NCBI GenBank assembly: GCA_964416925.1
Contig: CAYQFQ010000001.1
Coordinates: 1 to 46,549 of the forward strand
DNA from: an uncultured Candidatus Saccharibacteria bacterium
Lineage (GTDB): Bacteria > Patescibacteriota > Minisyncoccia > Phycocordibacterales > GWA1-40-21
Length of the DNA: 46,549 bases
Direction: 5' to 3'
The notes beneath the pieces are model-generated. The model searched no databases, was not told the origin of the DNA, and saw only the letters and a list, made by a program, of their open reading frames with translations. Shown here piece by piece: positions 1 to 46,549 of this stretch. Each line of letters starts with the position of its first letter. Within the stretch, counting starts at the first letter, position 1. A program made the translations under genes and the position numbers.

Positions 1-13
1 CCTACTGGGCGCA
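1..13 (+). tRNA. 3' end of a tRNA cut by the window edge (identity unknown)
   Basis: CCTAC-TGGGCGC-A reads as T-stem 3' strand, acceptor 3' strand and discriminator. It is followed by the same hairpin plus anti-acceptor trailer (TGCGCCCA at 46-53) seen after four complete tRNAs. Confidence 0.4.
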
Positions 14-339
14 CAAATGAAAAATATGTAAATATTTTTCATTTGTGCGCCCAGAGTAAGCAATATGAATTGCTTACGTTAGGGGTCGAACAGCGGAACT
101 ATGTTTTTCTAGTAAGAAAAACAAGTGAGCTGGTGCCCAGACTTTTCCGAGTGGCGACGAGGAAAAAGTCGAGGGAGAAAGTGTACTCACGTCCCCTATT
201 TTAGGAATGTGACCACAGACATTAAAGATAGTTAGGATACTGTCCATGTAATGGAAGACTCCCTACTGAAAAAATTAGATTGGGCGGGGTCGCGAGATTT
301 TCTAGCAAGAAAATACTTGTGACCACAATATTATGTGAT
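14..339 (+). ncRNA. tRNA-trailer structured block: hairpin, anti-acceptor, GTAAG hairpin, then module 81-197 and further hairpin modules
   Basis: Hairpin 14-45. TGCGCCCA at 46-53 is complementary to 6-13. Hairpin GTAAGCAA..TTGCTTAC at about 56-78. Module closed by AGGGG (81-85) and CCCCT (193-197), containing a U-rich stem with AGTA loop (104-121), a hairpin with 12-nt loop GAGTGGCGACGA (140-170) and the motif GGAGAAAGTGTACTCACGT. Hairpin 288-324 contains G:T wobbles that pair only on this strand. Confidence 0.5.
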
Positions 340-421
340 GCACGGGTGGCGAAATTGGTACACGCACTTGCCTTAGGAGCAAGCGGAGCAATCCATGGAG
401 GTTCAAGTCCTCTCCCGTGCA
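340..421 (+). tRNA. tRNA-Leu(UAG)
   Basis: Cloverleaf read by eye: acceptor GCACGGG/CCCGTGC, anticodon loop CTTAGGA, long variable arm, T arm GGAGG-TTCAAGT-CCTCT. No encoded CCA. Confidence 0.9.
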
Positions 422-734
422 CAGACAAAAAAACACTTTATAAGTGTTTTTTTTGTGCACGGAGTAAGTGCTTAATAGCACTTACGCGAGAGGACTTGAA
501 AAGGTTGAATATATTTTGATTAGTGAACTCACAAATCTAAATATGAAACCTATACCGAATCTGTAAGATTCAAGACCCCTCTCTCGCGCACAAAAAACTT
601 AAACGAAATGCGACTAAGCATTTCGTTTTTTGTTTTTACAGCGAGAGAGGGCTCGAAAGCCGGAGGCAGACGTGCCGAGGCGAGGTCGCGGGTTTTGCTA
701 GCAAGCAAAAACCTGTGACCAAGTCTTCCTCGCC
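422..734 (+). ncRNA. tRNA-Leu trailer: two consecutive mirror modules with a pseudo tRNA-Leu 3' end between them
   Basis: Hairpin 427-453. GTGCACGG (454-461) is complementary to CCGTGCAC of the tRNA. GTAAGTGCT..AGCACTTAC hairpin follows. GAGAGGACTTGAA (487-499) is complementary to T loop plus T stem TTCAAGTCCTCTC. Degenerate direct copy of the tRNA 3' end, TTCAAGACCCCTCTCTCGCGCA (about 569-590). Second hairpin, then GCGAGAGAGGG (641-651), then hairpin 684-720. Confidence 0.5.
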
Positions 735-785
735 CACATAATAATTCTTAATAAAAAACCTTTATTTAGGGACGTTTTTTATTAC

Positions 786-814
786 TTGACTTTTAACATC
801 AAATATGCTATACT
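786..814 (+). promoter_or_regulatory. sigma70-like promoter TTGACT-N17-TATACT
   Basis: TTGACT at 786-791 and TATACT at 809-814, upstream of the 54-aa ORF. Confidence 0.55.
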
Positions 815-868
815 TGTTAAGGATTTAAAAGTGGTGGAAATATCAATCAAACTCAAACGGAGGACGAT

Positions 869-1033
869 ATGGCAAACAAGAAACAGGAAAACAAGTTCAC
901 CGACAAGGACCTCGAGCGCATCGATAAGAAGCGCCAAGCGAAATTTCGGCGCCTTCTGCTCCTGATCATCGGTTCCCTCTTCGCAGGCGGTCTGGTGAGC
1001 GGCATCTTCACGAGTATCGCTTATTGGGGTTAA
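869..1033 (+). CDS. small C-terminally anchored membrane protein, 54 aa (not in the ORF track, which lists 60 aa or longer)
   Basis: ATG at 869 lies 6 nt after GGAGG. Translation: MANKKQENKFTDKDLERIDKKRQAKFRRLLLLIIGSLFAGGLVSGIFTSIAYWG. Consensus promoter upstream and GC-rich terminator downstream. GC-rich relative to flanks. Confidence 0.6.
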   Translation: MANKKQENKFTDKDLERIDKKRQAKFRRLLLLIIGSLFAGGLVSGIFTSIAYWG

Positions 1034-1047
1034 CCCCCAGAAGAGCA

Positions 1048-1079
1048 AATGGCGGGTTCCTACGGACCCGCCATTTTTC
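1048..1079 (+). terminator. rho-independent terminator
   Basis: GGCGGGT..ACCCGCC stem followed by TTTTT. Confidence 0.7.
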
Positions 1080-1110
1080 ATTTCCATATCTTCCCCACTT
1101 TATATCTGTC

Positions 1111-3393: not shown

Positions 3394-3618
3394 TTTTTTA
3401 TTATTAATTATTAAATTTACACCTAATTTTACATCAAATACGCGCGAAAAAAAGTCTAACAAGGCTTTAGAAACCAAAAATAAGAAAGTGTAAAGAACGA
3501 CCTCTAAATAGTCTCTCAAATTATGATTTATTTACTCAAAAAAAAATAAATTTCCAAAAGACTTTTTTTTGTTTAGAAAATTTCCCACAAAAAATACCCC
3601 GTAAATGGGGTTTCTATA

Positions 3619-4124: not shown

Positions 4125-4292
4125 CTAATTGCAATCGTTAATCGGCATATCAGAAGATGGGTTCCCATGTTTTATCCATCCACCTTCAACACAAATCCAA
4201 GAATCTTCTGAACCTCCTAAAATAATTTTTATTCCGAAAATTGCACCGAGTATAAGTATGATCAAAATAATAATTGTGCCAGTCCATTTCAT
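4125..4292 (-). CDS. small signal-anchored protein, 55 aa (not in the ORF track)
   Basis: Translation: MKWTGTIIILIILILGAIFGIKIILGGSEDSWICVEGGWIKHGNPSSDMPINDCN. TATAAT lies 6 nt upstream of the ATG, so the mRNA may be leaderless. The ORF abuts the DUF192 gene. Confidence 0.4.
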   Translation of the reverse strand: MKWTGTIIILIILILGAIFGIKIILGGSEDSWICVEGGWIKHGNPSSDMPINDCN

Positions 4293-4589: not shown

Positions 4590-4709
4590 GTTTTCCCCTC
4601 TCCTCTTTCTGTCTCTAACTCATACTCAAAAAACATCTACTAAAATGTTATAAGAATACGGAACGAAAGTCAAACCACATAACACAACAAAATCAAAGAC
4701 AAATATATA

Positions 4710-5867
4710 TTAATTGCTCTTAAAAGTCTTAGCAACTGCTTTGACTACTCCTTTATCAAAAGGTTTAGGTAAAATATTATCTACAGTAGGCTTTTTCACA
4801 CACTTTGCCAAAGCCTCCGCAGCTTTAACAAACATTTTTTGCTCAAACTGTTTAATATTGTTATCCAATATTCCGCGGAAAATTCCAGGAAAACCCAAAA
4901 CGTTATTCAGTTGGTTTGGAAAATCAGAACGTCCTGTAGCGACGATAAATGCTCCAGCACTTTTTGCGATATCGGGCATTATTTCTGGTATTGGATTTGC
5001 CAAAGCAAAAATTATCGGCTTTTCATTCATTGTCTCTACCATCTCTTTTGTAACAAGCCCTGCTTTACTAACCCCAATGAATATATCTCTTCCTTTAATA
5101 GCTGTCGCTAAATTGCCTGAAATCTTTTCAGATCCTCCTGTCTCTTTTTTTACCAAACTAATCAGTTCTTTCTTTTCGATATTAAGATCTTTTCTATCTT
5201 CAGAAACAATTCCGTGACTGTCAGCAAAAATTATTTTCTTAAACCCATAACCGACGAGCATCTTAGTAATTGCTGTACCAGCAGCACCAATTCCGTTTAT
5301 TAATATCTTTGCATCTTCTTTTTTTATCTTCCTCAACTTCAAAGCATTTATTAGCGCCGCCAAAACCACAGTAGCAGTTCCATGTTGATCGTCATGCATT
5401 ACGGGGATGTCTAGTTCCGCCCTCAATCTTTTCTCTATCTCAAAACATCGAGGTGCAGAAATATCTTCAAGATTTATTCCACCAAACACGGGGGCAATCT
5501 GTTTAACAACTTTTATTATTTCCTCGGTGTCTTGAGTATCAAGACAAATTGGAAATGCATCTACACCTGCAAATTCTTTGAACAAAAGCGCCTTCCCCTC
5601 CATGACAGGTATTGCACCTTTCGCGCCGAGATTGCCCAAACCCAAAACAGCTGAACCATCCGAGACAACGGCAATCATATTTTTCTTAATTGTGTATGTG
5701 TAAGCTAGTTTCGGATCTCTTGCAATCTCAAGACATACCTGTCCAACACCAGGAGTATAAGCTAAGGACAAATCATCTTTATTCTTTACAGCAACCTTTC
5801 CTTTTATTTCTATCTTACCTGAGAACTTCTTGTGTAAAGCTAAAGATCTTTCATTTACGTTTTTCAT
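4710..5867 (-). CDS. maeB: NAD(P)-dependent malic enzyme (short form)
   Basis: LAYTPGVGQVC, VVSDGSAVLGLGNLG and PVMEGKALLFKEFAGVDAFPICL are characteristic malic-enzyme motifs. Confidence 0.85.
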   Translation of the reverse strand: MKNVNERSLALHKKFSGKIEIKGKVAVKNKDDLSLAYTPGVGQVCLEIARDPKLAYTYTIKKNMIAVVSDGSAVLGLGNLGAKGAIPVMEGKALLFKEFAGVDAFPICLDTQDTEEIIKVVKQIAPVFGGINLEDISAPRCFEIEKRLRAELDIPVMHDDQHGTATVVLAALINALKLRKIKKEDAKILINGIGAAGTAITKMLVGYGFKKIIFADSHGIVSEDRKDLNIEKKELISLVKKETGGSEKISGNLATAIKGRDIFIGVSKAGLVTKEMVETMNEKPIIFALANPIPEIMPDIAKSAGAFIVATGRSDFPNQLNNVLGFPGIFRGILDNNIKQFEQKMFVKAAEALAKCVKKPTVDNILPKPFDKGVVKAVAKTFKSN

Positions 5868-6925: not shown

Positions 6926-7444
6926 TTATTTTTTAATATTATCAATTACAAAATGTACTCTCTCCTCGGGTGGCAAAACTGGTACTGTTATTATTGAGTA
7001 TCCATATTCTTCATATCCTTCCTTTATTGCATCATGAATAGCAAGGGCTGTTTCCCTATCCTCGAAACGAGACTCATCTTGTGTATATGAAGGAAGTGGA
7101 TCTAACAAAAAAACCTTATCATATCTATTATGACCGAATTCTTCCAAGAGTTTTGATACGGGCATCTTGTAGTGGATAGAGTAACCATAATTATCTACAA
7201 TTCCCCTATCTAGAAATACTTCATCTGTAGTTATTTTAGATTCTAATTCTATTTGACGTCTTATGACCTCCTGTTGAAATAATTCAGGATTATTTGCTGG
7301 AGAAAAATCACTATCCACCTTTTTCTTTTCCTCAATAAGTATTCTAGATACTTCAGGAACGATGACAAATCCAAGTTTAGAAAGTAATTCAATAAGTTTA
7401 GTTTTTCCAGTACCAGGACCACCAGTTATGACATACTTTTTCAT
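6926..7444 (-). CDS. P-loop ATPase (AAA_28 / NadR-like, COG3911-type)
   Basis: Walker A GGPGTGKT. Start set at MKKYVITGG, because the longer ORF runs into tRNA-Ser. Confidence 0.6.
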   Translation of the reverse strand: MKKYVITGGPGTGKTKLIELLSKLGFVIVPEVSRILIEEKKKVDSDFSPANNPELFQQEVIRRQIELESKITTDEVFLDRGIVDNYGYSIHYKMPVSKLLEEFGHNRYDKVFLLDPLPSYTQDESRFEDRETALAIHDAIKEGYEEYGYSIITVPVLPPEERVHFVIDNIKK

Positions 7445-7445
7445 A

Positions 7446-7534
7446 TGCGGAGGGTAAGAGATTTGAACTCTTGATGGAGTTTCCCCCATGCCACCTTTCC
7501 AAGGTGGTGCACTAGACCGCTATGCGAACCCTCC
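7446..7534 (-). tRNA. tRNA-Ser(GGA)
   Basis: Acceptor GGAGGGT/ACCCTCC, anticodon loop TTGGAAA, long variable arm, T loop TTCAAAT. No mirror trailer. Confidence 0.85.
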
Positions 7535-7644
7535 CTAAATCAAATCTAAAGATTTGATCGGGCGAACCATTTTAAAAAAATGGTTTTAGCCCTCAGCCCA
7601 TTAGATACTACAACAAAAAAGTTGTTTTTCCAAACAACTTTTTT

Positions 7645-8559
7645 CTATCTTCCAATTAAAGCTTTGATTCTATCTTCTACCGGTGGATGAGTACTAAATA
7701 AATTTGTTATTTTTCCTGCCCCGTCAAATTGTCTTTTTATTTGACTGGGGTTACCTGCTGACCCGAAGGGATTTGAAATAAAAAGATGTGCAGTAGCTTG
7801 ATTTGGATTTTTCATTGGAATATTCACAGAATATATTTTCTGCAATGCTGAAGCTAGGCCTTCAGGATATCGAGTAAGCAATACTCCAGAGGCATCAGCT
7901 AGAAACTCTCTCTTTCTTGAAATAGCAAACTGAATAAGCCTTGCAAAAATTGGAGACAATATTATAAAAATCACACCGACTATCATCAAAATTCCACTAC
8001 CCTTATTATCTCTATCCCCACCTCTCATACCGCTTCTCATAAAAATATTTGCAAGAATTGAAACAAAACCAACAAGCACCACAACAATAGTTGAAAGTAA
8101 TATATCTCTATTACCAATATGAGAAAGTTCATGAGCAATCACCCCTTCCAATTCAGACCTATCTAATATCTTCATAAGGCCAGTCGTAACAGCAACAACA
8201 GCGTGTTCTTTATCTCTACCTGTTGCAAAAGCATTTGGTGACGGATCTTCTACTATATATATCTTTGGCATAGGAAGCCCGGCAGTAATAGAAAGGTTCT
8301 CTACTATGTGATACAAGTCAGTATATTTATCATGCTCTGCTGGAATTGCTCCAGACATAGACAAAACTATCTTGTCTGAAAACCAATAACTCAAGACATT
8401 CATAAAAATACTAAAGGCTACAGCAACATACAATATGATAGGACTTTGATAGTAATAGCTAATGAAATATCCAAGTGCCACAATTATCACAAAAAACAAG
8501 GACATCAAAAACCATGTCCTTCTTACATTATTATCTTGTTGTGTATATAAAGTAGCCAT
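7645..8559 (-). CDS. htpX: M48 family zinc protease HtpX
   Basis: HELSHIGNRD (HExxH), four TM segments, typical length. Confidence 0.9.
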   Translation of the reverse strand: MATLYTQQDNNVRRTWFLMSLFFVIIVALGYFISYYYQSPIILYVAVAFSIFMNVLSYWFSDKIVLSMSGAIPAEHDKYTDLYHIVENLSITAGLPMPKIYIVEDPSPNAFATGRDKEHAVVAVTTGLMKILDRSELEGVIAHELSHIGNRDILLSTIVVVLVGFVSILANIFMRSGMRGGDRDNKGSGILMIVGVIFIILSPIFARLIQFAISRKREFLADASGVLLTRYPEGLASALQKIYSVNIPMKNPNQATAHLFISNPFGSAGNPSQIKRQFDGAGKITNLFSTHPPVEDRIKALIGR

Positions 8560-8565
8560 ATCTTA

Positions 8566-9039
8566 TTAAATATCACCTTTTAGAATTTTGTCCACCATCT
8601 CGATTTCATCCCAAATCCCTTCAATAATATCGTATTCTTTTGCCTCTGCTAAAGTAACCCACTTATACTCAGTACTATCTTCATCAAGCTTTACATCACC
8701 AGATTCATATTCAGCATAGTAGCTTAATACTATACACGGTACACCTTGCGGGGAGATGAACGCCAAATCCAAAAGATATGTTGGTTTTTTTATTTCAAGA
8801 TTCACCTCCTCCTTTACTTCTCTTCTCAAGGTTTTTTCAATAGCATAATACCACTGACCAGAAACCGTAGAAGGTTTGAGATTCATATAGTCATCGACTT
8901 CCATTCCTCCACCCGGCACAGTCCATTTATTAGGAAAAGATTTTTTAAAAGGGGCACGTTTTGTTATAAGATATTTTCCATCTTTATAAATAATAGCCGT
9001 AACTGCAATCCTATGAAGTTCTCTGTCTTTAATTTCCAT
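8566..9039 (-). CDS. NUDIX hydrolase
   Basis: Nudix box GGGMEV...LRREVKEEVNL. Confidence 0.8.
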   Translation of the reverse strand: MEIKDRELHRIAVTAIIYKDGKYLITKRAPFKKSFPNKWTVPGGGMEVDDYMNLKPSTVSGQWYYAIEKTLRREVKEEVNLEIKKPTYLLDLAFISPQGVPCIVLSYYAEYESGDVKLDEDSTEYKWVTLAEAKEYDIIEGIWDEIEMVDKILKGDI

Positions 9040-9087
9040 AATTATACATTAAAACCCATTTCGCCTTTTAGACGAAATGGGTTTTAA

Positions 9088-9639
9088 TTAGAATTTTACT
9101 TCAACCGGCTTCTTTGCAGCTTCCTCATCTAGAGTAAAGAGCTCCATTTTTACGAAATTAAATATTTTTGCAATAAGATTACTTGGAAAGGCTTCGATTG
9201 CGATATTTAAGTCTCTAACATTTCCATTATAAAATCTTCTTGAGGCTTGTATCTTGTTTTCTGTATCTGATAGTTCAGACTGCAATGCTAAGAAACTCTG
9301 ATTTGCTTTTAGATCTGGATAAGCTTCTGCGACAGCAAAAATTGTCTTCAAAGAAGATGTAAGCATATTCTCTGCTTTACCTTTGTCTGCAATATTCTGT
9401 GCACCCATAGCTGCAGCTCTAGCTTGTATAACTCTATCAAAGGTCTCACTCTCATGTGTAGCATAGCCTTTAACTGAATTTACCAAATTTGGAATAAGGT
9501 CATATCTCCTCTTAAGTTGTACGTCTATATCTGACCAGGCTTCTTTTGCTCTGTTGATAAAGGTTACAAATCTGTTATATGAAATAACACCCCACAATAC
9601 CAATACCACCAAAATTCCTAATATTATATATATTGTCAT
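9088..9639 (-). CDS. lemA: LemA family protein
   Basis: N-terminal TM plus YNRFV..AWSDIDVQLKRRYDLIPNLV signature. LemA is commonly paired with an HtpX-type protease. Confidence 0.85.
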   Translation of the reverse strand: MTIYIILGILVVLVLWGVISYNRFVTFINRAKEAWSDIDVQLKRRYDLIPNLVNSVKGYATHESETFDRVIQARAAAMGAQNIADKGKAENMLTSSLKTIFAVAEAYPDLKANQSFLALQSELSDTENKIQASRRFYNGNVRDLNIAIEAFPSNLIAKIFNFVKMELFTLDEEAAKKPVEVKF

Positions 9640-9764
9640 AGTTTTATATTAAGCAAGTTACAAAACACTGCTAAAATCTTGCCCGTCTATTATATCACAA
9701 TTATATACAAAAAACATATCCAAAGAGTTGCTTTAGTATTCTTTTCTGCTATAATGGCAAAGCA

Positions 9765-10001
9765 ATGAATACCTTGGTCAATATATTACCTTATATCCAG
9801 CTAACACTTTCTGTGCTTATTATTATATCTGTCTTACTACAACATTCCGAAGCAGGAGCCGGTGGTTCATTTGGTGGTGGAGATAACTGGAATAACGCAT
9901 ACCACACAAGAAGAGGTTTCGAAAAATTCACATTCAATTCAACTATAGTTTTGGGAGTACTTTTTGCTGTTTCTGCCATTTTGGCACTGTTTTTCAAATA
10001 A
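9765..10001 (+). CDS. secG: preprotein translocase subunit SecG
   Basis: 78 aa with two TM segments and an LLQHSEAGAGGSFGGG loop. Confidence 0.75.
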   Translation: MNTLVNILPYIQLTLSVLIIISVLLQHSEAGAGGSFGGGDNWNNAYHTRRGFEKFTFNSTIVLGVLFAVSAILALFFK

Positions 10002-10058
10002 ACAGATCCTCCTCTTTAATTATTAGTTTAAGTTTTTACAAAGCTTTTTTTTAATCTT

Positions 10059-11825
10059 GTGAAAGAGAAGATCAAACATATTATTGGAATAAAATGGGAA
10101 ATGCCCGGCTCAGAAATGATAAAAAATATCATCGCATCTTTTAGTTCAACCGAAAAAGCAATTTTTTACATTTTAACCACACTTTTTATAATTTCTGCCC
10201 TATTTTTACTTTCTCAGACAAATCAAAATTATCTAATATCTGTACCGGCTCGCGGTGGAACTCTAACAGAAGGGATTGTAGGGTCACCTAGGTTCGTAAA
10301 TCCCCTGCTCGCTACGTATGATACCGACAAAGATCTTGTATCTTTGGTTTACTCTGGATTGATGAAATCAACTTCCGCCGGTAGTCTTATTCCGGATCTT
10401 GCAAAAGAATATAAAGTTTCTGACGATGGTTTAGAATACGATTTTATACTAAAAGACAATCTTACTTTCCAAGACGGAGTAAGACTAACAACTGATGATA
10501 TAGAATTCACAATCAAAAAAAGCCAGGATCCAGATCTTAAGAGTCCAAAGAGGCCAAGTCTTTATGAAGTCAAAGTACAAAAAATAAGCGACAAGGAAAT
10601 CAAATTTACTCTCAGTAAGCCTTATGCACCTTTTCTTGAGACTATGACTCTCGGTATCTTACCAAAGCATATCTGGAGCAATTTCAATAGTAATGAATTC
10701 TCTATGAGCCAATATAATGTTGAACCAATTGGCTCAGGACCATATATGGTTAAAAAAATGGACATCGTAAAAAAGAACATGCTCATTACGCCTGTTTATT
10801 ATGAACTTTCTCCTTTTAAAAATTATGCATTGGGAGAAGCACTGATAAACAAACTTATAATTCGATTCTATTCGAGCGAGAAAGACCTTGTTAGCGCATT
10901 TAATGGCGGAGCTATAGAATCCATGAGTGGAGTTTCAAAAGAAAATCTATCAAAAATCGATACGAACCTTTTTAATTTGAACACCTCTCTTTTGCCTAGA
11001 ATATTTGCCGTATTCTTCAATCAAAATCAATCAACTGTTCTTGCAAATAGAGAAGTAAGACTTGCACTCGATACAGCAATCGATAAAAACAAAATCATTT
11101 CCGAAGTCCTTGGTGGCTATGGTGTCACCATAGACGGACCTGTTCCAGCAAGACTTATAGACTTAAAAGAAGAAGATGAAGCTAAAATTGATGAAGCAAC
11201 AAGAATTCAAGAAGCCAAGGATATTTTAATAAAAGGAGGTTGGGTATATAACGAGTCAAATAAAGTATGGGAGAAAATAGCAAAGAAAAAAGTAACCCAA
11301 ACTTTGAGTTTTTCTGTTGCTACTGCAAACAGCCAAGAACTACTTGGAGTCTCAGAAATAATCAAAAAAGACTGGGAAAAAATCGGAGTCTTTGTAGATA
11401 TCAAACCCTATGATTCAGGAGACTTGCAACAAAACATAATAAGACCCAGAAAATATGATGCGTTACTCTTCGGCGAAGTTATCGGAAGAGACATGGATTT
11501 ATATGCTTATTGGCATTCATCACAGAGAAACGACCCCGGCTATAATGTCTCTATGTACACAAATAGTAAGGCAGACAAGCTACTTGAAGACGCCAGAAAA
11601 ATCTCAGATCCGATAGATAGAAATGCTAAATATCAAAGTTTTTATAGCGAGGTGCAATCAGATATACCAGCCATTTTCCTCTACTCTCCAAAGTTTACTT
11701 ATGTAACACCGCATAAGGTCAAAGGATTAGAAATAGATGTCACAACTTCCCCATCAGAAAGATTCTTGGATGTTAACAAGTGGTATATCGAAACTAACGA
11801 CCTTTGGAAAATATTTATTAAATAA
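10059..11825 (+). CDS. ABC transporter substrate-binding protein, family 5 (peptide/nickel type), membrane-anchored
   Basis: SBP_bac_5-like motifs (RFVNPLLA, LTFQDG). GTG start in the track; true start uncertain. Confidence 0.7.
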   Translation: MKEKIKHIIGIKWEMPGSEMIKNIIASFSSTEKAIFYILTTLFIISALFLLSQTNQNYLISVPARGGTLTEGIVGSPRFVNPLLATYDTDKDLVSLVYSGLMKSTSAGSLIPDLAKEYKVSDDGLEYDFILKDNLTFQDGVRLTTDDIEFTIKKSQDPDLKSPKRPSLYEVKVQKISDKEIKFTLSKPYAPFLETMTLGILPKHIWSNFNSNEFSMSQYNVEPIGSGPYMVKKMDIVKKNMLITPVYYELSPFKNYALGEALINKLIIRFYSSEKDLVSAFNGGAIESMSGVSKENLSKIDTNLFNLNTSLLPRIFAVFFNQNQSTVLANREVRLALDTAIDKNKIISEVLGGYGVTIDGPVPARLIDLKEEDEAKIDEATRIQEAKDILIKGGWVYNESNKVWEKIAKKKVTQTLSFSVATANSQELLGVSEIIKKDWEKIGVFVDIKPYDSGDLQQNIIRPRKYDALLFGEVIGRDMDLYAYWHSSQRNDPGYNVSMYTNSKADKLLEDARKISDPIDRNAKYQSFYSEVQSDIPAIFLYSPKFTYVTPHKVKGLEIDVTTSPSERFLDVNKWYIETNDLWKIFIK

Positions 11826-18768: not shown

Positions 18769-18839
18769 TGGGGGATCGTCTAATGGTAGGACTTCGCCCT
18801 CTGGAGGCGAGTATTTTGGTTCGAATCCAAGTCCCCCAG
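18769..18839 (+). tRNA. tRNA-Gln(CUG)
   Basis: Acceptor TGGGGGA/TCCCCCA, anticodon loop CTCTGGA, T arm TTTGG-TTCGAAT-CCAAG. Promoter TTGAAC-N17-TATTAT upstream. Confidence 0.9.
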
Positions 18840-19029
18840 CAAATTAAAGGCCGAAAGGCTTTTTTAATTTGCTGGGGGAAGTGAGTGATAGTATCACTCA
18901 CGCCTTGGATTCGAACGCCGGAATACATTTTTCTTAGCAAAGAAAAATATGAGGCGGTGCCTAGACTAATCATACGCGACGGCGTATGATTAAGCCGAAG
19001 GAGAAAGTGTATTCACGTATCCAAGTTCC
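18840..19029 (+). ncRNA. tRNA-Gln mirror trailer (cleanest member of the family)
   Basis: Hairpin 18841-18870 with GAAA loop. TGCTGGGGGA at 18870-18879 (anti-acceptor, 10/10). Hairpin 18880-18901. CTTGGATTCGAAC at 18904-18916 (anti-T, 13/13). U-rich stem with AGCA loop at 18927-18948. Hairpin 18967-18992. GGAGAAAGTGTATTCACGT. Closing ATCCAAG at 19019-19025. Confidence 0.55.
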
Positions 19030-30489: not shown

Positions 30490-30562
30490 AGCCAAGGGCG
30501 AGGATCGAACTCGCGACCTGTGGTTTACGATACCACTGCTCTACCAACTGAGCTACCTTGGC
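30490..30562 (-). tRNA. tRNA-Thr(CGU)
   Basis: Acceptor GCCAAGG/CCTTGGC, anticodon arm GTGGT-ATCGTAA-ACCAC, T loop TTCGATC. No mirror trailer. Confidence 0.9.
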
Positions 30563-30756
30563 AAAAATACACGGAAGCCGTTGACCAGGAGACTAGGAAG
30601 TCTGATTGGTCACAAATTTCTTTCGTCGTCACTCAAGAAATTTTCGACCCCAGCTTGTATGTTTTTTCTACTGAAAAAACATTACTTCGCTTTTCAATCC
30701 TGACACGTGTGCAAAGCAGTTTGCACACTCAACAGCACCCTCCGTTACACTACGGG
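30563..30756 (-). ncRNA. tRNA-Thr(GGU) mirror trailer ending in a 15-nt copy of the tRNA 3' end
   Basis: Minus-sense order: GCTGTTG (anti-acceptor, one G:U), hairpin GTGTGCAAA..TTTGCACAC, CAGGATTGAA (anti-T), U-rich stem with AGTA loop (30662-30679), hairpin with loop GAGTGACGACGA (30608-30649), TCCTGGTCAACGGCT (30576-30590). Confidence 0.55.
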
Positions 30757-31006
30757 AGCCGTTGACCAGGATTGAACTGGTGACCTTGTCATTCGTTTAC
30801 ACCTCATCTTACGAGAGGACTAGACTGTATCTTTCCGCCTGAGGCGGACCCTTGTCAGTCGTTCGAGCGCTTTTTATAGCGCTACGGTCTTGTCCTTTTT
30901 AAAAGGAGATTAACCGTAATTCGGGATTCATATAAAAGTTACCAATTATATGGGCAGGGGTTCACGACCCACCAATGACATGCTCTACCAACTGAGCTAC
31001 AACGGC
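30757..31006 (-). tRNA. tRNA-Thr(GGU) interrupted by a 177-nt intron (30794-30970) after anticodon position 36
   Basis: Exon 1 (31006-30971): GCCGTTGTAGCTCAGTTGGTAGAGCATGTCATTGGT. Exon 2 (30793-30757): AATGACAAGGTCACCAGTTCAATCCTGGTCAACGGCT. Joined, they give a canonical 73-nt cloverleaf with loop TTGGTAA. Promoter TTGAAA-N17-TATTCT upstream. Confidence 0.8.
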
Positions 31007-31111
31007 AAAACAACACTTCGTAAGAATAGCTTATTTATTAAACTTTTTCAATCTAAAAACCACACCGTGCTGGTGTGGTTTTTTAAACTCTTGCGAGCTT
31101 GACCCATTACT

Positions 31112-31285
31112 CTATTGAACTAGAGTTGATACATTTGAAACAGCATGCTGACCTATTGAAAGCGCCATCTGCAAAGTATCGAAGAACATAAGAAGGGTCT
31201 TCTCGAATGCGTGAAAAATTTCAGGCATGAGAGATCGAATAAAAATGATTGCCAGAGCTAAACCGATTGCTCCCAGGATTCTCAT
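31112..31285 (-). CDS. possible 57-aa hydrophobic sORF (not in the ORF track)
   Basis: Translation: MRILGAIGLALAIIFIRSLMPEIFHAFEKTLLMFFDTLQMALSIGQHAVSNVSTLVQ. Followed by hairpin CCACACCGTGCTGGTGTGG. No clear SD. Confidence 0.3.
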   Translation of the reverse strand: MRILGAIGLALAIIFIRSLMPEIFHAFEKTLLMFFDTLQMALSIGQHAVSNVSTLVQ

Positions 31286-45912: not shown

Positions 45913-46020
45913 AATAATTTTTATTATTTGTTTTTAAAAAAAACTTTTGCTTTTACTAGTAATATTTTAACATAAATTTAAATATATTGTATATAGTAAA
46001 ACTATAACATTACAAAATAC

Positions 46021-46470
46021 TTAGACCTCGCTATGCTTTGTGTTCTCCGGCTTTCGAATCCCACAAGAATACGACCGGTTGGAATTTCGACCATTACATG
46101 GTCAGTACCCTCATTGGATTTTTTGTTTCGCTCTGCTCACAAAAAATGCTCAATGAGGCTTCGAATCCCAACGCAAGTGAATACTGAGGGGATTCGGCTA
46201 TTACATAGCCAGGTACTTTTCCATCTCGAAGACTCGATAAGGAAAAGTCTTTCGAATCCCACACGGAGGCAAGCAGTTGCGAGACTAGCGGGATATATTC
46301 GGTCACGAGTTTTTTGTTCGCCGTCGCTCACAAAAACCCTCGACCCCGACTCGCTATTTTTCCTGCTAGAAAAATTAGCTCCGTCTTTCGAATCCCAGCG
46401 TGAGTGAATACTTTCACTCACTCCGGTCGCGCAAATAAAATAGCCCCCTTTTGGGGGCTATTTTTATTTG
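46021..46470 (-). ncRNA. tRNA-Asp trailer: mirror segment followed by a tandem array of at least four stem-closed modules
   Basis: Minus-sense order: hairpin 46436-46468, TGCGCGACCGG (anti-acceptor, 11/11), hairpin GTGAGTGAA..TTCACTCAC, TGGGATTCGAA (anti-T, 11/11). Then modules closed by GGGATTC/GAATCCC-type stems. TTCGAATCCCA recurs on the plus strand at 46053, 46160, 46251 and 46387. Confidence 0.55.
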
Positions 46471-46544
46471 CGCGACCGGTGGGATTCGAACCCATGACCT
46501 CTCCCGTGACAGGGGAGCGCTCTAACCAGCTGAGCTACGATCGC
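46471..46544 (-). tRNA. tRNA-Asp(GUC)
   Basis: Acceptor GCGATCG/CGGTCGC (one G:U), anticodon loop CTGTCAC, T arm ATGGG-TTCGAAT-CCCAC. Confidence 0.9.
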
Positions 46545-46549
46545 ATTAT

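Follow-up and report, generated by a model that had tools for sequence, protein, structure and literature searches.

The tRNA genes of the analysed window (a 46,549-nt stretch of DNA from an uncultured Patescibacteria/CPR genome) are mostly followed by chains of small, tightly folded repeat units, each consisting of a reverse-complement copy and a direct copy of the neighbouring tRNA's 3' end around a conserved three-way-junction module. The family is real, recurs in related uncultured bacteria and matched nothing in Rfam, whereas its function and its way of spreading can only be inferred. Read on the tRNA-sense strand, a unit starts with the tRNA 3' end (t: T-loop, T-stem 3' strand and acceptor 3' strand) and a hairpin, often a terminator. 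This is followed by t', the exact reverse complement of t, which is usually split at the acceptor/T boundary by a conserved 9-bp hairpin (hp). A module of two helices with conserved loops, of which there are three types, and a direct copy of t complete the unit. Region 1-735 holds the 3' end of tRNA-Lys, tRNA-Leu(TAG) and four repeat units, and the same layout follows tRNA-Gln, tRNA-Asp and an intron-split tRNA. In the window 5 of 7 tRNA loci carry units. The individual elements are as follows (L numbers denote the related genomes and metagenome loci used for comparison, L001 being the closest relative).

1-15, plus strand: 3' end of tRNA-Lys(CTT), cut by the window edge (t of the first chain); identical to the 3' end of tRNA-Lys in L001.
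5-54, plus strand: perfect palindrome of acceptor 3' strand, AT-rich hairpin and anti-acceptor (t' part 1, 44-54), with 23-nt arms, 100% complementary, and a 4-nt spacer.
55-79, plus strand: hp (AGTAAGCAAT-ATGA-ATTGCTTACGT), splitting t'.
80-90, plus strand: anti-T of tRNA-Lys (TAGGGGTCGAA), the reverse complement of T-loop plus T-stem 3' strand, by comparison with the tRNA-Lys sequence in L001.
91-198, plus strand: type-1 module with P2 (GGAA/GAG internal loop) and hairpin A (loop TAGTAA), hairpin B (loop GGCGACGA), conserved GAGAAAGTGTACTCACGT at 175-192 and closing strand CCCCTA at 193-198; fold z-score -4.3. The same module follows tRNA-Gln at 18916-19026, and the orthologue in L097 has a fully compensated hairpin B.
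200-269, plus strand: degenerate type-3-like piece with a GTA-loop hairpin (about 243-257) and a T-copy TCCCTACTG (261-269); TGTGACCACA is duplicated at 208-217 and 318-327. This piece was read by eye and its boundaries are uncertain.
283-327, plus strand: type-2 P3 hairpin (288-324) with the invariant G292•T320 wobble and a TAGCAA-type loop.
340-422, plus strand: tRNA-Leu(TAG), 56.3 bits, no CCA encoded.
415-462, plus strand: palindrome of acceptor 3' strand, AT-rich hairpin (427-453) and anti-acceptor TTGTGCACGG (453-462); two inverted repeats, 88% and 100% complementary.
463-487, plus strand: hp (AGTAAGTGCT-TAAT-AGCACTTACGC).
488-500, plus strand: anti-T of tRNA-Leu (GAGAGGACTTGAA); tRNA-specific complementarity 19 of 20.
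496-573, plus strand: type-3 module with a long P2 hairpin, junction TACCG and P3 (557-571) with a GTA triloop; a row of the type-3 alignment (A5). The orthologue in L004 shows compensatory changes, and the fold of 484-590 has z = -5.6.
569-590, plus strand: degenerate direct copy of the tRNA-Leu 3' end, which closes unit 1 by pairing with about 485-493 and serves as t of unit 2.
592-637, plus strand: hairpin, terminator-like on both strands (601-628).
641-657, plus strand: t' of unit 2 (GCGAGAGAGGGCTCGAA), without hp; 93% complementary to 574-587.
653-735, plus strand: type-2 module TCGAA-AGCCGGAG-[GCA GACG TGC]-CGAGGCG (P2), P3 at 684-720 and closing strand AAGTCTTCCTCGCC(C), which pairs with 641-653 through several G•U pairs. 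The fold of 641-735 is -51.1 kcal/mol (z = -5.1) on this strand against -34.7 on the other. The identical 37-nt P3 lies behind tRNA-Lys in L001.
786-814, plus strand: promoter-like site (TTGACT-17-TATACT, 10 of 12 matches) of the downstream small ORF (869-1033), marking the end of the repeat region.
18841-19026, plus strand: tRNA-Gln unit with terminator (18846-63), anti-acceptor (18870-79), hp (18880-903), anti-T (18904-15), type-1 module and T-copy ATCCAAGT (19019-26); complementarity 20 of 20.
30576-30756, minus strand: unit between the intron-split tRNA (31006-30757) and tRNA-Thr(CGT), with anti-acceptor 30738-29, hp 30728-05, anti-T 30704-693, type-2 module (P3 30649-08) and 3'-end copy 30589-76. 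No promoter or terminator lies between the two tRNAs; the fold is -67.1 kcal/mol on this strand against -55.3 on the other.
46020-46469, minus strand: tRNA-Asp chain with terminator palindrome, anti-acceptor 46433-23, hp 46422-398 and four modules, each starting with TGGGATTCGAA (ends at 46387, 46251, 46160, 46053): type-2, two type-3-like and a truncated type-2; complementarity 20 of 20.

The starting point was an earlier note made from the sequence alone, which described two paralogous hairpins with a compensatory change and an iterated series of structured modules around tRNA-Leu. This observation holds, as every element listed there is present and only one coordinate is off by one. The hairpins 288-324 (GGTCGCGAG...CTTGTGACC) and 684-720 (GGTCGCGGG...CCTGTGACC) are two copies of a 43-nt direct repeat (283-325 and 679-721, 84% identical). 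A295:T317 does become G691:C713, and the G:T pairs 292:320 / 294:318 and 688:716 / 690:714 are kept in both copies (counted by hand). GGTCG...GTGACC occurs 3 times in the window against 0.12 expected. GAGAGGACTTGAA, the reverse complement of the tRNA-Leu T-loop and T-stem 3' strand, lies at 488-500 and not at 487-499 as given in the note (arms 402-418 / 484-500, 94% complementary). GAATCT-GTA-AGATTC at 557-571, the degenerate 3'-end copy at 569-590, the hairpin at 592-637 and GCGAGAGAGGG at 641-651, complementary to 574-587, were all recovered. TCGAAAGCCGGAG at 653-665 recurs at 46045-57 on the minus strand, and with 1-2 mismatches at 46379-91 (minus) and 18911-23 (plus), i.e. 4 matches against 0.33 expected, a number reached by 0 of 100 shuffles. 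The note missed that the pattern already starts at window position 1 with the 3' end of tRNA-Lys, and that the same architecture follows tRNA-Gln, the intron-split tRNA and tRNA-Asp.

One compensatory change between two paralogues is weak evidence on its own. The family-level alignments, however, make the point strongly. The type-3 module is 95.5% paired against 59.5% in shuffles, with double changes in 18 of 20 pairs, a covariation score of 0.829 against 0.186 in shuffles (alignment A5, reached by 0 of 500) and slid controls at or below 0.2. Across the family hp is 99.3% paired, 8 of 9 pairs show compensatory change, and the score is 0.608 against 0.167 in shuffles (alignment A7, reached by 0 of 500). 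The stem of hairpin B is fully exchanged between the window and L097 while its loop GCGACGGC is kept. Fold z-scores range from -2.2 to -7.5. These tests do not separate RNA from single-stranded DNA.

Moreover t' is specific for its own tRNA, with 18.5 of 20 complementary positions to the unit's own tRNA (14 of 25 units perfect) against 11.8 of 20 to other tRNA types. In L097 the complementarity includes trailer bases beyond the tRNA. We considered whether the anti-T segment is instead a sense copy of the T-arm 5' half. This was rejected, since for T-loops that are not palindromic (Leu ACTTGAA, Thr GATTGAA, Lys GGTCGAA) the segment is clearly the reverse complement. Likewise, the anti-acceptor is not a duplicate of the tRNA's own 5' strand, as it lacks the tRNA's own wobble positions. 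A retroviral-type primer-binding site was rejected because there is no complement of CCA and the complementarity runs on into the genomic trailer.

To see whether the architecture extends beyond the window, metagenome loci were retrieved with one hp/anti-T pattern. The layout is present in all 52 loci obtained, behind at least 8 further tRNA species (Asn, four Ser isoacceptors, Tyr, Gln and Pro), although fishing with the hp motif biases the picture towards hp-containing units. It also occurs in MAGs labelled Patescibacteria and Yonathbacteria, and some versions lack hp, as does the window at 641-657. The succession of 3'-end copy, hairpin, complement, module and 3'-end copy, proposed in the note to be iterated, is a true iterated unit: it is seen twice after tRNA-Leu, about four times after tRNA-Asp and three times in tandem in L102. 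Direct copies of the tRNA 3' end close units at 569-590, 722-735 and 30589-76 as well as in the Asp chain.

The units differ between close relatives. Content, i.e. number, type and order of modules, varies between genomes whose ribonucleotide reductase (RNR) proteins are 91-94% identical to the window's. In L001 the tRNA-Leu-plus-unit block is inverted and carries a different P2 variant, and L003, a relative whose RNR is 79% identical, lacks units at the same tRNAs. One near-identical ~275-bp unit lies behind three different left flanks, and in one of those loci (L130) the right flank differs as well. However, L112 and L122 share their right flank, so that difference may be a neighbouring cassette insertion rather than unit movement. 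The ends of this unit are ambiguous because the flanking repeat is the tRNA end itself, and no autonomous partner was found. Insertions lie inside P2 and P3, modules are nested inside modules, and nested arrays are found in L126.

The note further held that the G:U pairs fix the functional strand and thereby support an RNA, and that the series could reflect serial insertion into a regenerated target or snap-back copying. This interpretation is only partly supported. In favour of the tRNA-sense strand, G292:T320 is invariant in all ~14 recognisable copies of this hairpin found without constraining its 3' side, the tRNA-sense strand folds better in 24 of 31 units, and in type-3 consensus pairs G:U outnumbers A:C 17 to 6. 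But a strand-symmetric count in type-3 helix P2 gives 18 G:T against 16 A:C, and only about 4% of predicted pairs are wobbles. G•T also forms in folded single-stranded DNA, so the bias favours the strand, not the molecule. Independent support for transcription on that strand comes from the unit between two tRNAs without promoter or terminator in between, and from the lack of a promoter-like site between tRNA-Leu and the preceding units. Serial insertion or duplication at a regenerated tRNA 3' end fits the different flanks, the nesting and the differing content described above. Snap-back copying is plausible for the inverted copy, which is the exact complement of the acceptor 3' strand and, in L097, of the trailer beyond it, but it is not demonstrated and cannot explain the conserved modules.

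The units have no Rfam, phage or plasmid match. Rfam 15 covariance models returned no hit at the gathering threshold on 1-800, 45950-46549 and 30540-31120, and only chance-level hits at E<=10. ARAGORN and RF00005 recognise only the 5 genuine tRNAs, the units giving no tRNA hit even at E<=10. Hammerhead, group II intron and K-turn guide RNA were considered by eye, but the core motifs or the size do not fit. Terminator-like sites were called at 601-628 and 18846-63, whereas the hairpins at 5-54 and 427-453 are AT-rich and were not called, and there is none in the Thr locus. In the viral collection (IMG/VR) the short hp pattern gave 42 chance hits with no tRNA context and three specific patterns gave 0 hits. 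In plasmid and phage BLAST searches only the tRNA-Leu part matched. The units have no coding capacity. A Pfam scan of 39 window ORFs found no recombinase and no enriched transposase or reverse transcriptase, and in 117 ORFs near units no recombinase, transposase or reverse transcriptase was enriched among the 25 most frequent of 138 matched Pfam families, with only one serine-recombinase fragment seen (near the units of L107). Direct repeats of the tRNA 3' end are present, but the DNA they bound is 100-450 nt of non-coding sequence. Full-text literature searches found no description of these elements.

Taken together, we tentatively read the units as a modular, non-coding and non-autonomous repeat family of Patescibacteria, depending on its structure, that lives at the 3' flank of tRNA genes, colonising and regenerating their 3' ends. 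In this view t', as a single strand, pairs with the distal copy of t, which would give a closed rod reproducing the acceptor/T-stem stack of the neighbouring tRNA, with hp and a three-way junction branching from it. What our analysis shows is that the fold is under selection, that t' is tRNA-specific and that each unit ends by regenerating the tRNA 3' end, so that units stack in series. It also shows, by context comparison only, that units turn over quickly, being gained, replaced, nested and inverted between close relatives, with the same unit behind different left flanks. The remainder is inference. The units would be propagated by an unidentified trans-acting activity, or by template switching at the terminator palindrome, acting on the folded single strand and using the tRNA 3' end as target and template. 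No insertion enzyme, intermediate or clean empty/filled allele pair was found. From promoter and terminator positions we further infer transcription with the tRNA as trailer or spacer, to an extent left uncertain by the terminator-like hairpin behind which most units lie. Self-pairing of t' with its own t copy would keep the antisense segment from disturbing the tRNA, and the rod or the long t-hairpin-t' stem may act as a processing site. The vertical conservation of the Gln unit between the window and L097, together with the conserved loops and junctions, could equally mean a host function, and the strand asymmetry is modest.

Such a host function is the strongest alternative, possible but less likely in our view. 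Each unit would then be a tRNA-mimic RNA (an acceptor/T-stem minihelix carrying accessory helices), co-transcribed with its tRNA, released by RNase P, RNase Z or RNase III, and acting in tRNA-operon processing or regulation or as a decoy for tRNA-binding factors, with E. coli rtT RNA from the tyrT trailer repeats as precedent. In agreement with this, helices covary while loops and junctions stay constant (the GTA triloop, TACTG, GAG..CGAA, GCGACGGC and the invariant G•T). The continuous strand of P1 copies tRNA positions about 54-73, and hp emerges where the D and anticodon arms would. One unit is a spacer inside a tRNA operon, many units are followed by their own terminator, most tRNA loci of the window carry units and the tRNA-sense strand folds better. 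However, units are absent from the same tRNAs in L003, modules differ between close relatives, and tandem, truncated and nested copies look like element dynamics, not a gene. In P1 the discriminator base and the bases beyond it are paired, unlike a substrate of RNase P, RNase Z or the CCA-adding enzyme, and tRNA models do not recognise the units.

It seems unlikely that the units are mini-elements, or relics of attachment regions, that integrate as folded single-stranded DNA. Here the long t-hairpin-t' palindrome (or the t':t rod) would mimic the duplex tRNA-gene 3' end and be recombined with it by a trans-acting recombinase, as CTXphi/IMEX elements do at dif and integron attC sites do. The layout predicted by this reading, t - loop - t' - body - t with a regenerated target allowing arrays, is exactly the one observed, arrays accumulate, and the hairpins are G•T-tolerant and strand-biased. 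GNA-type (GTA) and GCGAAGC-like mini-loops are typical of stable DNA hairpins. In some metagenome loci cargo cassettes lie next to unit chains or are bounded by tRNA-3'-end-like GTTCGAAC...AGC sequences, including an EcoRV-type restriction-modification (R-M) island with 220-bp terminal inverted repeats and small promoter-bearing ORFs. The inverted tRNA-plus-unit block recalls integrase-driven flips between tRNA-end copies in Thermococcales (PMC5495485). On the other hand, no integrase, Xer, HUH or Rep gene is enriched near units among the most frequent Pfam families given above, none is present in the window, and no copies were found in IMG/VR, phage or plasmid collections. Integrated dead copies would not keep compensatory structure, yet the units do, and some units have degenerate left t copies.

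A further-reaching reading, possible though rather unlikely, is an undescribed class of tRNA-templated mobile structured elements in CPR bacteria. A conserved scaffold (hp plus three-way-junction module) would be flanked by a bipartite antisense guide to the 3' end of a specific tRNA gene and by a copy of that end. The folded single strand (DNA or RNA) would present a mimic of its own target and integrate at tRNA 3' ends through a trans-acting enzyme, regenerating the target and resulting in integron- or IMEX-like arrays that also capture cargo cassettes.

Neutral by-products of replication errors are very unlikely as a complete explanation and largely refuted by the covariation results. Template switching at the terminator palindrome and at the palindromic T-loop TTCGAA (quasi-palindrome or ODIRA-type inverted triplication) would create t-hairpin-t'-t, and later slippage and duplication would create chains, without selection on structure or mobility. 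The exact t', continuing from the terminator stem and including trailer bases, the existence of hp-less versions and the direct-inverted-direct order, which is what double template switching gives (PMC11790251), would agree with this. But it cannot create the conserved hp and the three module families shared by unrelated tRNA loci and genomes, the modules not being local sequence copies, nor can it explain the compensatory maintenance of their helices or identical units in different contexts. Least likely of all is a functional opposite strand (an antisense RNA ending in a tRNA-like 3' end) or duplex DNA bound by proteins (arm-type sites of integrative elements): the terminators are bidirectional, Watson-Crick covariation alone is blind to strand and the symmetric wobble count is balanced, but the invariant G•T would become an invariant A•C mismatch, the opposite strand folds worse in 24 of 31 units and by 12-16 kcal/mol in the window's type-2 units, duplex protein sites do not need compensatory stem changes and no antisense promoter is evident.

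If the units are mobile, they would show a way of choosing a target by carrying a folded copy of it, with the arms reprogrammed for each tRNA, adding a tRNA-directed counterpart to integron attC and CTXphi biology in a poorly known part of the bacterial tree. If they are functional RNAs, they would be a lineage-wide set of tRNA-mimic trailers, which bears on how CPR bacteria, whose tRNA genes in this window lack an encoded CCA, process tRNA operons. In practice the units produce spurious ORFs (for example 46033-46407), mark hotspots where cassettes and rearrangements accumulate, and should be modelled when annotating tRNA loci in CPR metagenome-assembled genomes (MAGs).

Among known systems, the E. 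coli tyrT trailer repeats and rtT RNA (RF00391) likewise are repeated non-coding units directly behind a tRNA gene, each ending with a copy of that tRNA's 3' end. They are co-transcribed with the tRNA and processed, which for the units here is only inferred. rttR/tyrT is mentioned in bioRxiv 10.1101/2024.07.17.603846. Tandem trailer units each ending with a copy of the tRNA 3' end are found here as well, but there is no sequence or structure match to the Rfam model, neither at the gathering threshold nor at E<=10. The tyrT repeats are not known to carry an inverted tRNA copy, hp or a three-way-junction module, are confined to one locus in enterobacteria and include a small ORF, whereas here at least 10 tRNA species carry units. 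In CTXphi/IMEX elements and integron attC sites inverted copies of a target-like site fold into a hairpin that mimics the duplex target, integration regenerates the target so that arrays build up, and folding is strand-specific and tolerates mismatches. The target here would be a tRNA gene 3' end, not dif or attI, no XerCD or IntI link was found in the ORFs scanned, and the units are only 100-250 nt, mostly without cargo. With tRNA-gene-targeting integrative elements, whose att sites carry the tRNA 3' end, and with the integrase-mediated inversions in Thermococcales (PMC5495485), the units share direct repeats of the tRNA 3' segment bounding the inserted DNA, tandem accretion, a regenerated tRNA and inversions next to tRNA genes. 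Yet no integrase is adjacent, the elements are tiny and non-coding, and they carry an additional inverted copy and single-strand structure under covariation, which duplex att sites do not need. tRNA-like structures used as processing signals or mimics (plant mitochondrial t-elements, MALAT1 mascRNA, the tRNA-like domain of tmRNA) also embed an acceptor/T-stem-like helix in a longer transcript. The units, for which processing is merely inferred, lack a free discriminator base or a CCA context, have the T-loop replaced by a three-way junction and are not detected by tRNA models. Structured intergenic repeats and MITE-like elements (REP/BIME-RAYT, pneumococcal BOX, Neisseria Correia, Rickettsia RPE) are likewise short, modular, hairpin-forming, non-autonomous repeats, often next to terminators and with a mosaic module order. 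Those families carry their own fixed ends, whereas here the outer arms are templated from the neighbouring tRNA and differ for each tRNA, and location is restricted to tRNA 3' flanks.

The window is chromosomal DNA of about 36% G+C with housekeeping genes, namely those for class II ribonucleotide reductase (RNR), RNase J, type IV pilus components, two-component sensors and RF-2. The closest RNR homologues are derived from metagenome-assembled genomes (MAGs) labelled Paceibacterota, Minisyncoccia or Parcubacteria, that is, Patescibacteria or CPR. ARAGORN and Rfam find five tRNAs, and two more emerge from comparison:

1-15: the 3' end of tRNA-Lys(CTT).
31006-30757, minus strand: a tRNA missed by ARAGORN, whose two exons (acceptor/D/anticodon stem, and anticodon stem/T/acceptor) are separated in the anticodon loop by a group-I-like intron of about 180 nt.

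The insert of the split tRNA gives a full-length but sub-threshold match to the group I intron model (18.8 bits, E=0.02), and a promoter-like site lies at 31051-31023. None of the tRNA genes read here (340-422, 18769-18840, 46470-46544 and others) encodes the 3' CCA; the acceptor end runs straight into an A-rich hairpin arm. Two ORFs of 124 and 101 aa (46033-46407, plus strand, and 782-1087, minus strand) are probably spurious calls. The first overlaps the repeat chain behind tRNA-Asp, has no Pfam hit and is probably caused by the structured repeats, while the second lies opposite the small real gene at 869-1033.

The observation made in the earlier note holds, as every feature listed there exists. 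The two 37-nt hairpins (288-324 and 684-720) are copies of a 43-nt repeat with 84% identity. They differ by the exchange of A295:T317 to G691:C713, and both G:T pairs are kept. The segment complementary to the T-loop and T-stem (anti-T) is located at 488-500, one base off the position reported in the note. The hairpin with the GTA loop, the degenerate copy of the tRNA-Leu 3' end, the hairpin thereafter, its complement and the recurrence of TCGAAAGCCGGAG are all real and exceed chance.

Read on the tRNA-sense strand, one plan recurs behind Lys, Leu, Gln, Asp and the split tRNA. It consists of t (T-loop, T-stem 3' strand and acceptor 3' strand), a hairpin that is often terminator-like, t' (the reverse complement of t), a module and a direct copy of t. 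Usually t' is split exactly at the acceptor/T boundary by a 9-bp hairpin, A-GTRAG...CTYAC-GY, here called hp. Three module types occur, all beginning right after the (T)TCGAA of t':

Type 1: a P2 helix with a GGAA/GAG internal loop and an AT-rich hairpin with a TAGCAA-like loop, a second hairpin (hairpin B) with a GCGACGGC loop, and a conserved GGAGAAAGTGTAYTCACGT.
Type 2: AGCCGGAG-hairpin-CGAGGCG followed by GGTCG...GTGACC; the two hairpins of the earlier note are this P3.
Type 3: a long P2 hairpin with a GAG..CGAA apical motif, the junction TACTG, and a short P3 with a GTA triloop.

Each module is predicted to fold as a three-way junction closed by t':t, with z-scores from -2.2 to -7.5. Four units are found in region 1-735, in the following order:

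Behind tRNA-Lys: a type-1 unit, then a degenerate type-3/type-2 composite that ends at hairpin 288-324.
tRNA-Leu.
Leu unit 1: hp plus type 3.
Leu unit 2: no hp, type 2, containing hairpin 684-720.

To evaluate how far the family extends, metagenomes were scanned with hp plus ATTCGAA. The scan returned 52 loci, and every one shows the same plan. In 24 of them an annotated tRNA (Asn, four Ser isoacceptors, Tyr, Gln, Pro) lies directly upstream, whereas in the rest the left neighbour is a contig end or a sequence resembling a tRNA 3' end. A profile of the type-3 module finds 84 copies in 45 of those loci and none in 42 unrelated viral control loci. Named MAGs also carry units: L021, labelled Patescibacteria, behind tRNA-Ser; L027, labelled Yonathbacteria, behind tRNA-Glu and without hp; and L044. 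The t' segments are specific to their own tRNA, with 18.5 of 20 complementary positions (14 of 25 units perfect) against 11.8 of 20 for other tRNA types. Moreover, t' complements the 3' strand exactly rather than copying the 5' strand of the tRNA, and in locus L097, which carries a Gln unit, both the inverted and the direct repeat extend into the trailer beyond the tRNA. The template is therefore genomic DNA or the primary transcript, not mature tRNA.

Selection on structure was assessed by alignment. For P2 and P3 of type 3 (33 sequences), 95.5% of cells are paired against 59.5% in shuffles, and 18 of 20 pairs show changes on both sides. The covariation score is 0.829 against 0.186, with slid controls at or below 0.2. 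For hp (16 variants), 99.3% are paired and 8 of 9 pairs are compensatory. The Gln units of the window and of L097 are nearly identical, except that the stem of hairpin B is completely exchanged while its loop is kept; the tRNA terminator between them is unrelated.

The tRNA-sense strand is predicted to fold better in 24 of 31 units (mean -63.7 against -59.5 kcal/mol), and the gap reaches 12-16 kcal/mol in the type-2 units of the window. In folds of the sense strand 37 helix-internal G:T pairs stand against 3 A•C mismatches, and in the type-3 consensus pairs G:U outnumbers A:C 17 to 6. In all ~14 recognisable copies of type-2 P3 that were found without constraining the 3' side, G5 lies opposite T, which is the 292:320 pair of the earlier note, whereas the second G:T pair is not conserved. 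In contrast, a strand-symmetric count in type-3 P2 is balanced (18 against 16) and dominated by inherited subfamily features, and wobbles are only about 4% of pairs. The context adds weight to the sense strand. The unit at the Thr locus sits between two tRNAs, with the only promoter-like site upstream of the first and no terminator, and tRNA-Leu has no promoter-like site in the 340 nt of units before it. We conclude that the evidence favours the sense strand as the folded one and that the units are probably transcribed. The interpretation in the earlier note, according to which the G:T pairs fix the functional strand and indicate an RNA structure, is hence supported only in part, since these data do not separate RNA from folded single-stranded DNA.

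Comparison with relatives points to dynamic arrays. Relative L003 (RNR 79% identical to that of the window) has Leu(TAG), Lys, Leu(TAA) and Cys with no such units. L001 (RNR 91% identical) has the type-2 module, with the identical 37-nt P3, behind tRNA-Lys, bracketed there by TGTGCG...TGTGCGcccaag. The whole block of tRNA-Leu(TAG) plus its type-3 unit (L001 10667-11000 compared with window 340-600) is inverted in this relative, and its P2 base differs by flipped pairs, which suggests replacement rather than point divergence. In L001 tRNA-Leu has its own TTGATT-17-TAATAT promoter. L004 (RNR 94% identical) keeps the Leu type-3 unit with compensatory changes. It also has an extra type-1-like module (4135-4262, minus strand) that is closed by its own 20-bp stem (fold z = -7.5) and sits after the terminator of the small gene next to the RNR gene, not next to any tRNA. 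An additional ORF cassette of ~100 aa with its own promoter (4620-4931) is inserted after the Leu chain relative to the window.

In the metagenome loci a ~275-bp unit is near-identical behind tRNA-Asn, behind a degenerate sequence resembling a tRNA 3' end and behind a truncated ORF. The right end of this element (L112 ~3490-3520, also L122, L130 and L098) contains GTGCGAC-G-TTCGAAC-CTGGT-GTTGCAC-T, which reads like an acceptor 5' strand fused directly to a T-loop, T-stem 3' strand and acceptor 3' strand, a tRNA with positions 8-52 missing. L102 has three tandem units with identical hairpins but different P2, L096 and L134 carry insertions of about 70 nt inside P3 or P2, and L098 and L111 diverge at a breakpoint in P3. 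In tRNA-Asn-type loci (L092, L101, L102, L117, L122, L123, L132) a recurrent 28-nt motif resembling a tRNA 3' end, GGTTCGAAC(R)TCCTYYACCCAGCGGAGC, closes small promoter-bearing gene cassettes and then serves as left neighbour of a unit, suggesting cassette arrays bounded by T-loop-like sequences. In L126 an EcoRV-type restriction-modification island of 4.2 kb (7100-11330) lies between two copies of a nested tRNA-Ser unit chain. It carries an EcoRV-like endonuclease, a D12-class adenine methylase and HARE-HTH/DUF4145 proteins, and is bounded by ~220-bp terminal inverted repeats starting with GTTCGAAC.

In a Pfam scan of 39 window ORFs and 117 ORFs near units, no recombinase, transposase or reverse transcriptase is present in the window or enriched near units. 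The only recombinase seen next to a unit is a large serine recombinase fragment (Recombinase and Zn_ribbon_recom domains) in locus L107 (4306-5322, minus strand), convergent with and abutting a tRNA-Ser unit at a contig end. No copy was found in IMG/VR or in the phage and plasmid collections.

Taken together, our analysis establishes a modular family with selected single-strand folds, tRNA-specific inverted and direct arms, regeneration of the tRNA 3' end, and serial, nested, rapidly changing arrays. What goes beyond this is inference and remains tentative: the units would be non-autonomous elements whose propagation depends on the fold and on the tRNA end as target and template, and they would be transcribed as trailers or spacers, in which self-pairing of t' with t neutralises the antisense segment. 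A host function cannot be excluded and is given substantial weight. In this view the units are tRNA-mimic RNAs processed from tRNA operons, like rtT from tyrT. The junction order t-loop-t'-body-t is what CTXphi/IMEX-type integration of a folded strand would leave. A double template switch would create the same order, but it cannot account for the conserved modules.

Rfam has no model for these units and literature searches found no description of them. The nearest precedents each share one aspect, namely the tyrT/rtT trailer repeats, the att repeats of tRNA-targeting integrative elements, the folded attC and CTX attP sites, and structured repeats of the REP, BOX and Correia type. None of these is known to combine a tRNA-templated bipartite antisense arm, a scaffold hairpin, three-way-junction modules and a regenerated tRNA end. 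We place the units with structured tRNA-trailer or intergenic repeats, from which this combination sets them apart, with a real chance that they are something more distinctive.
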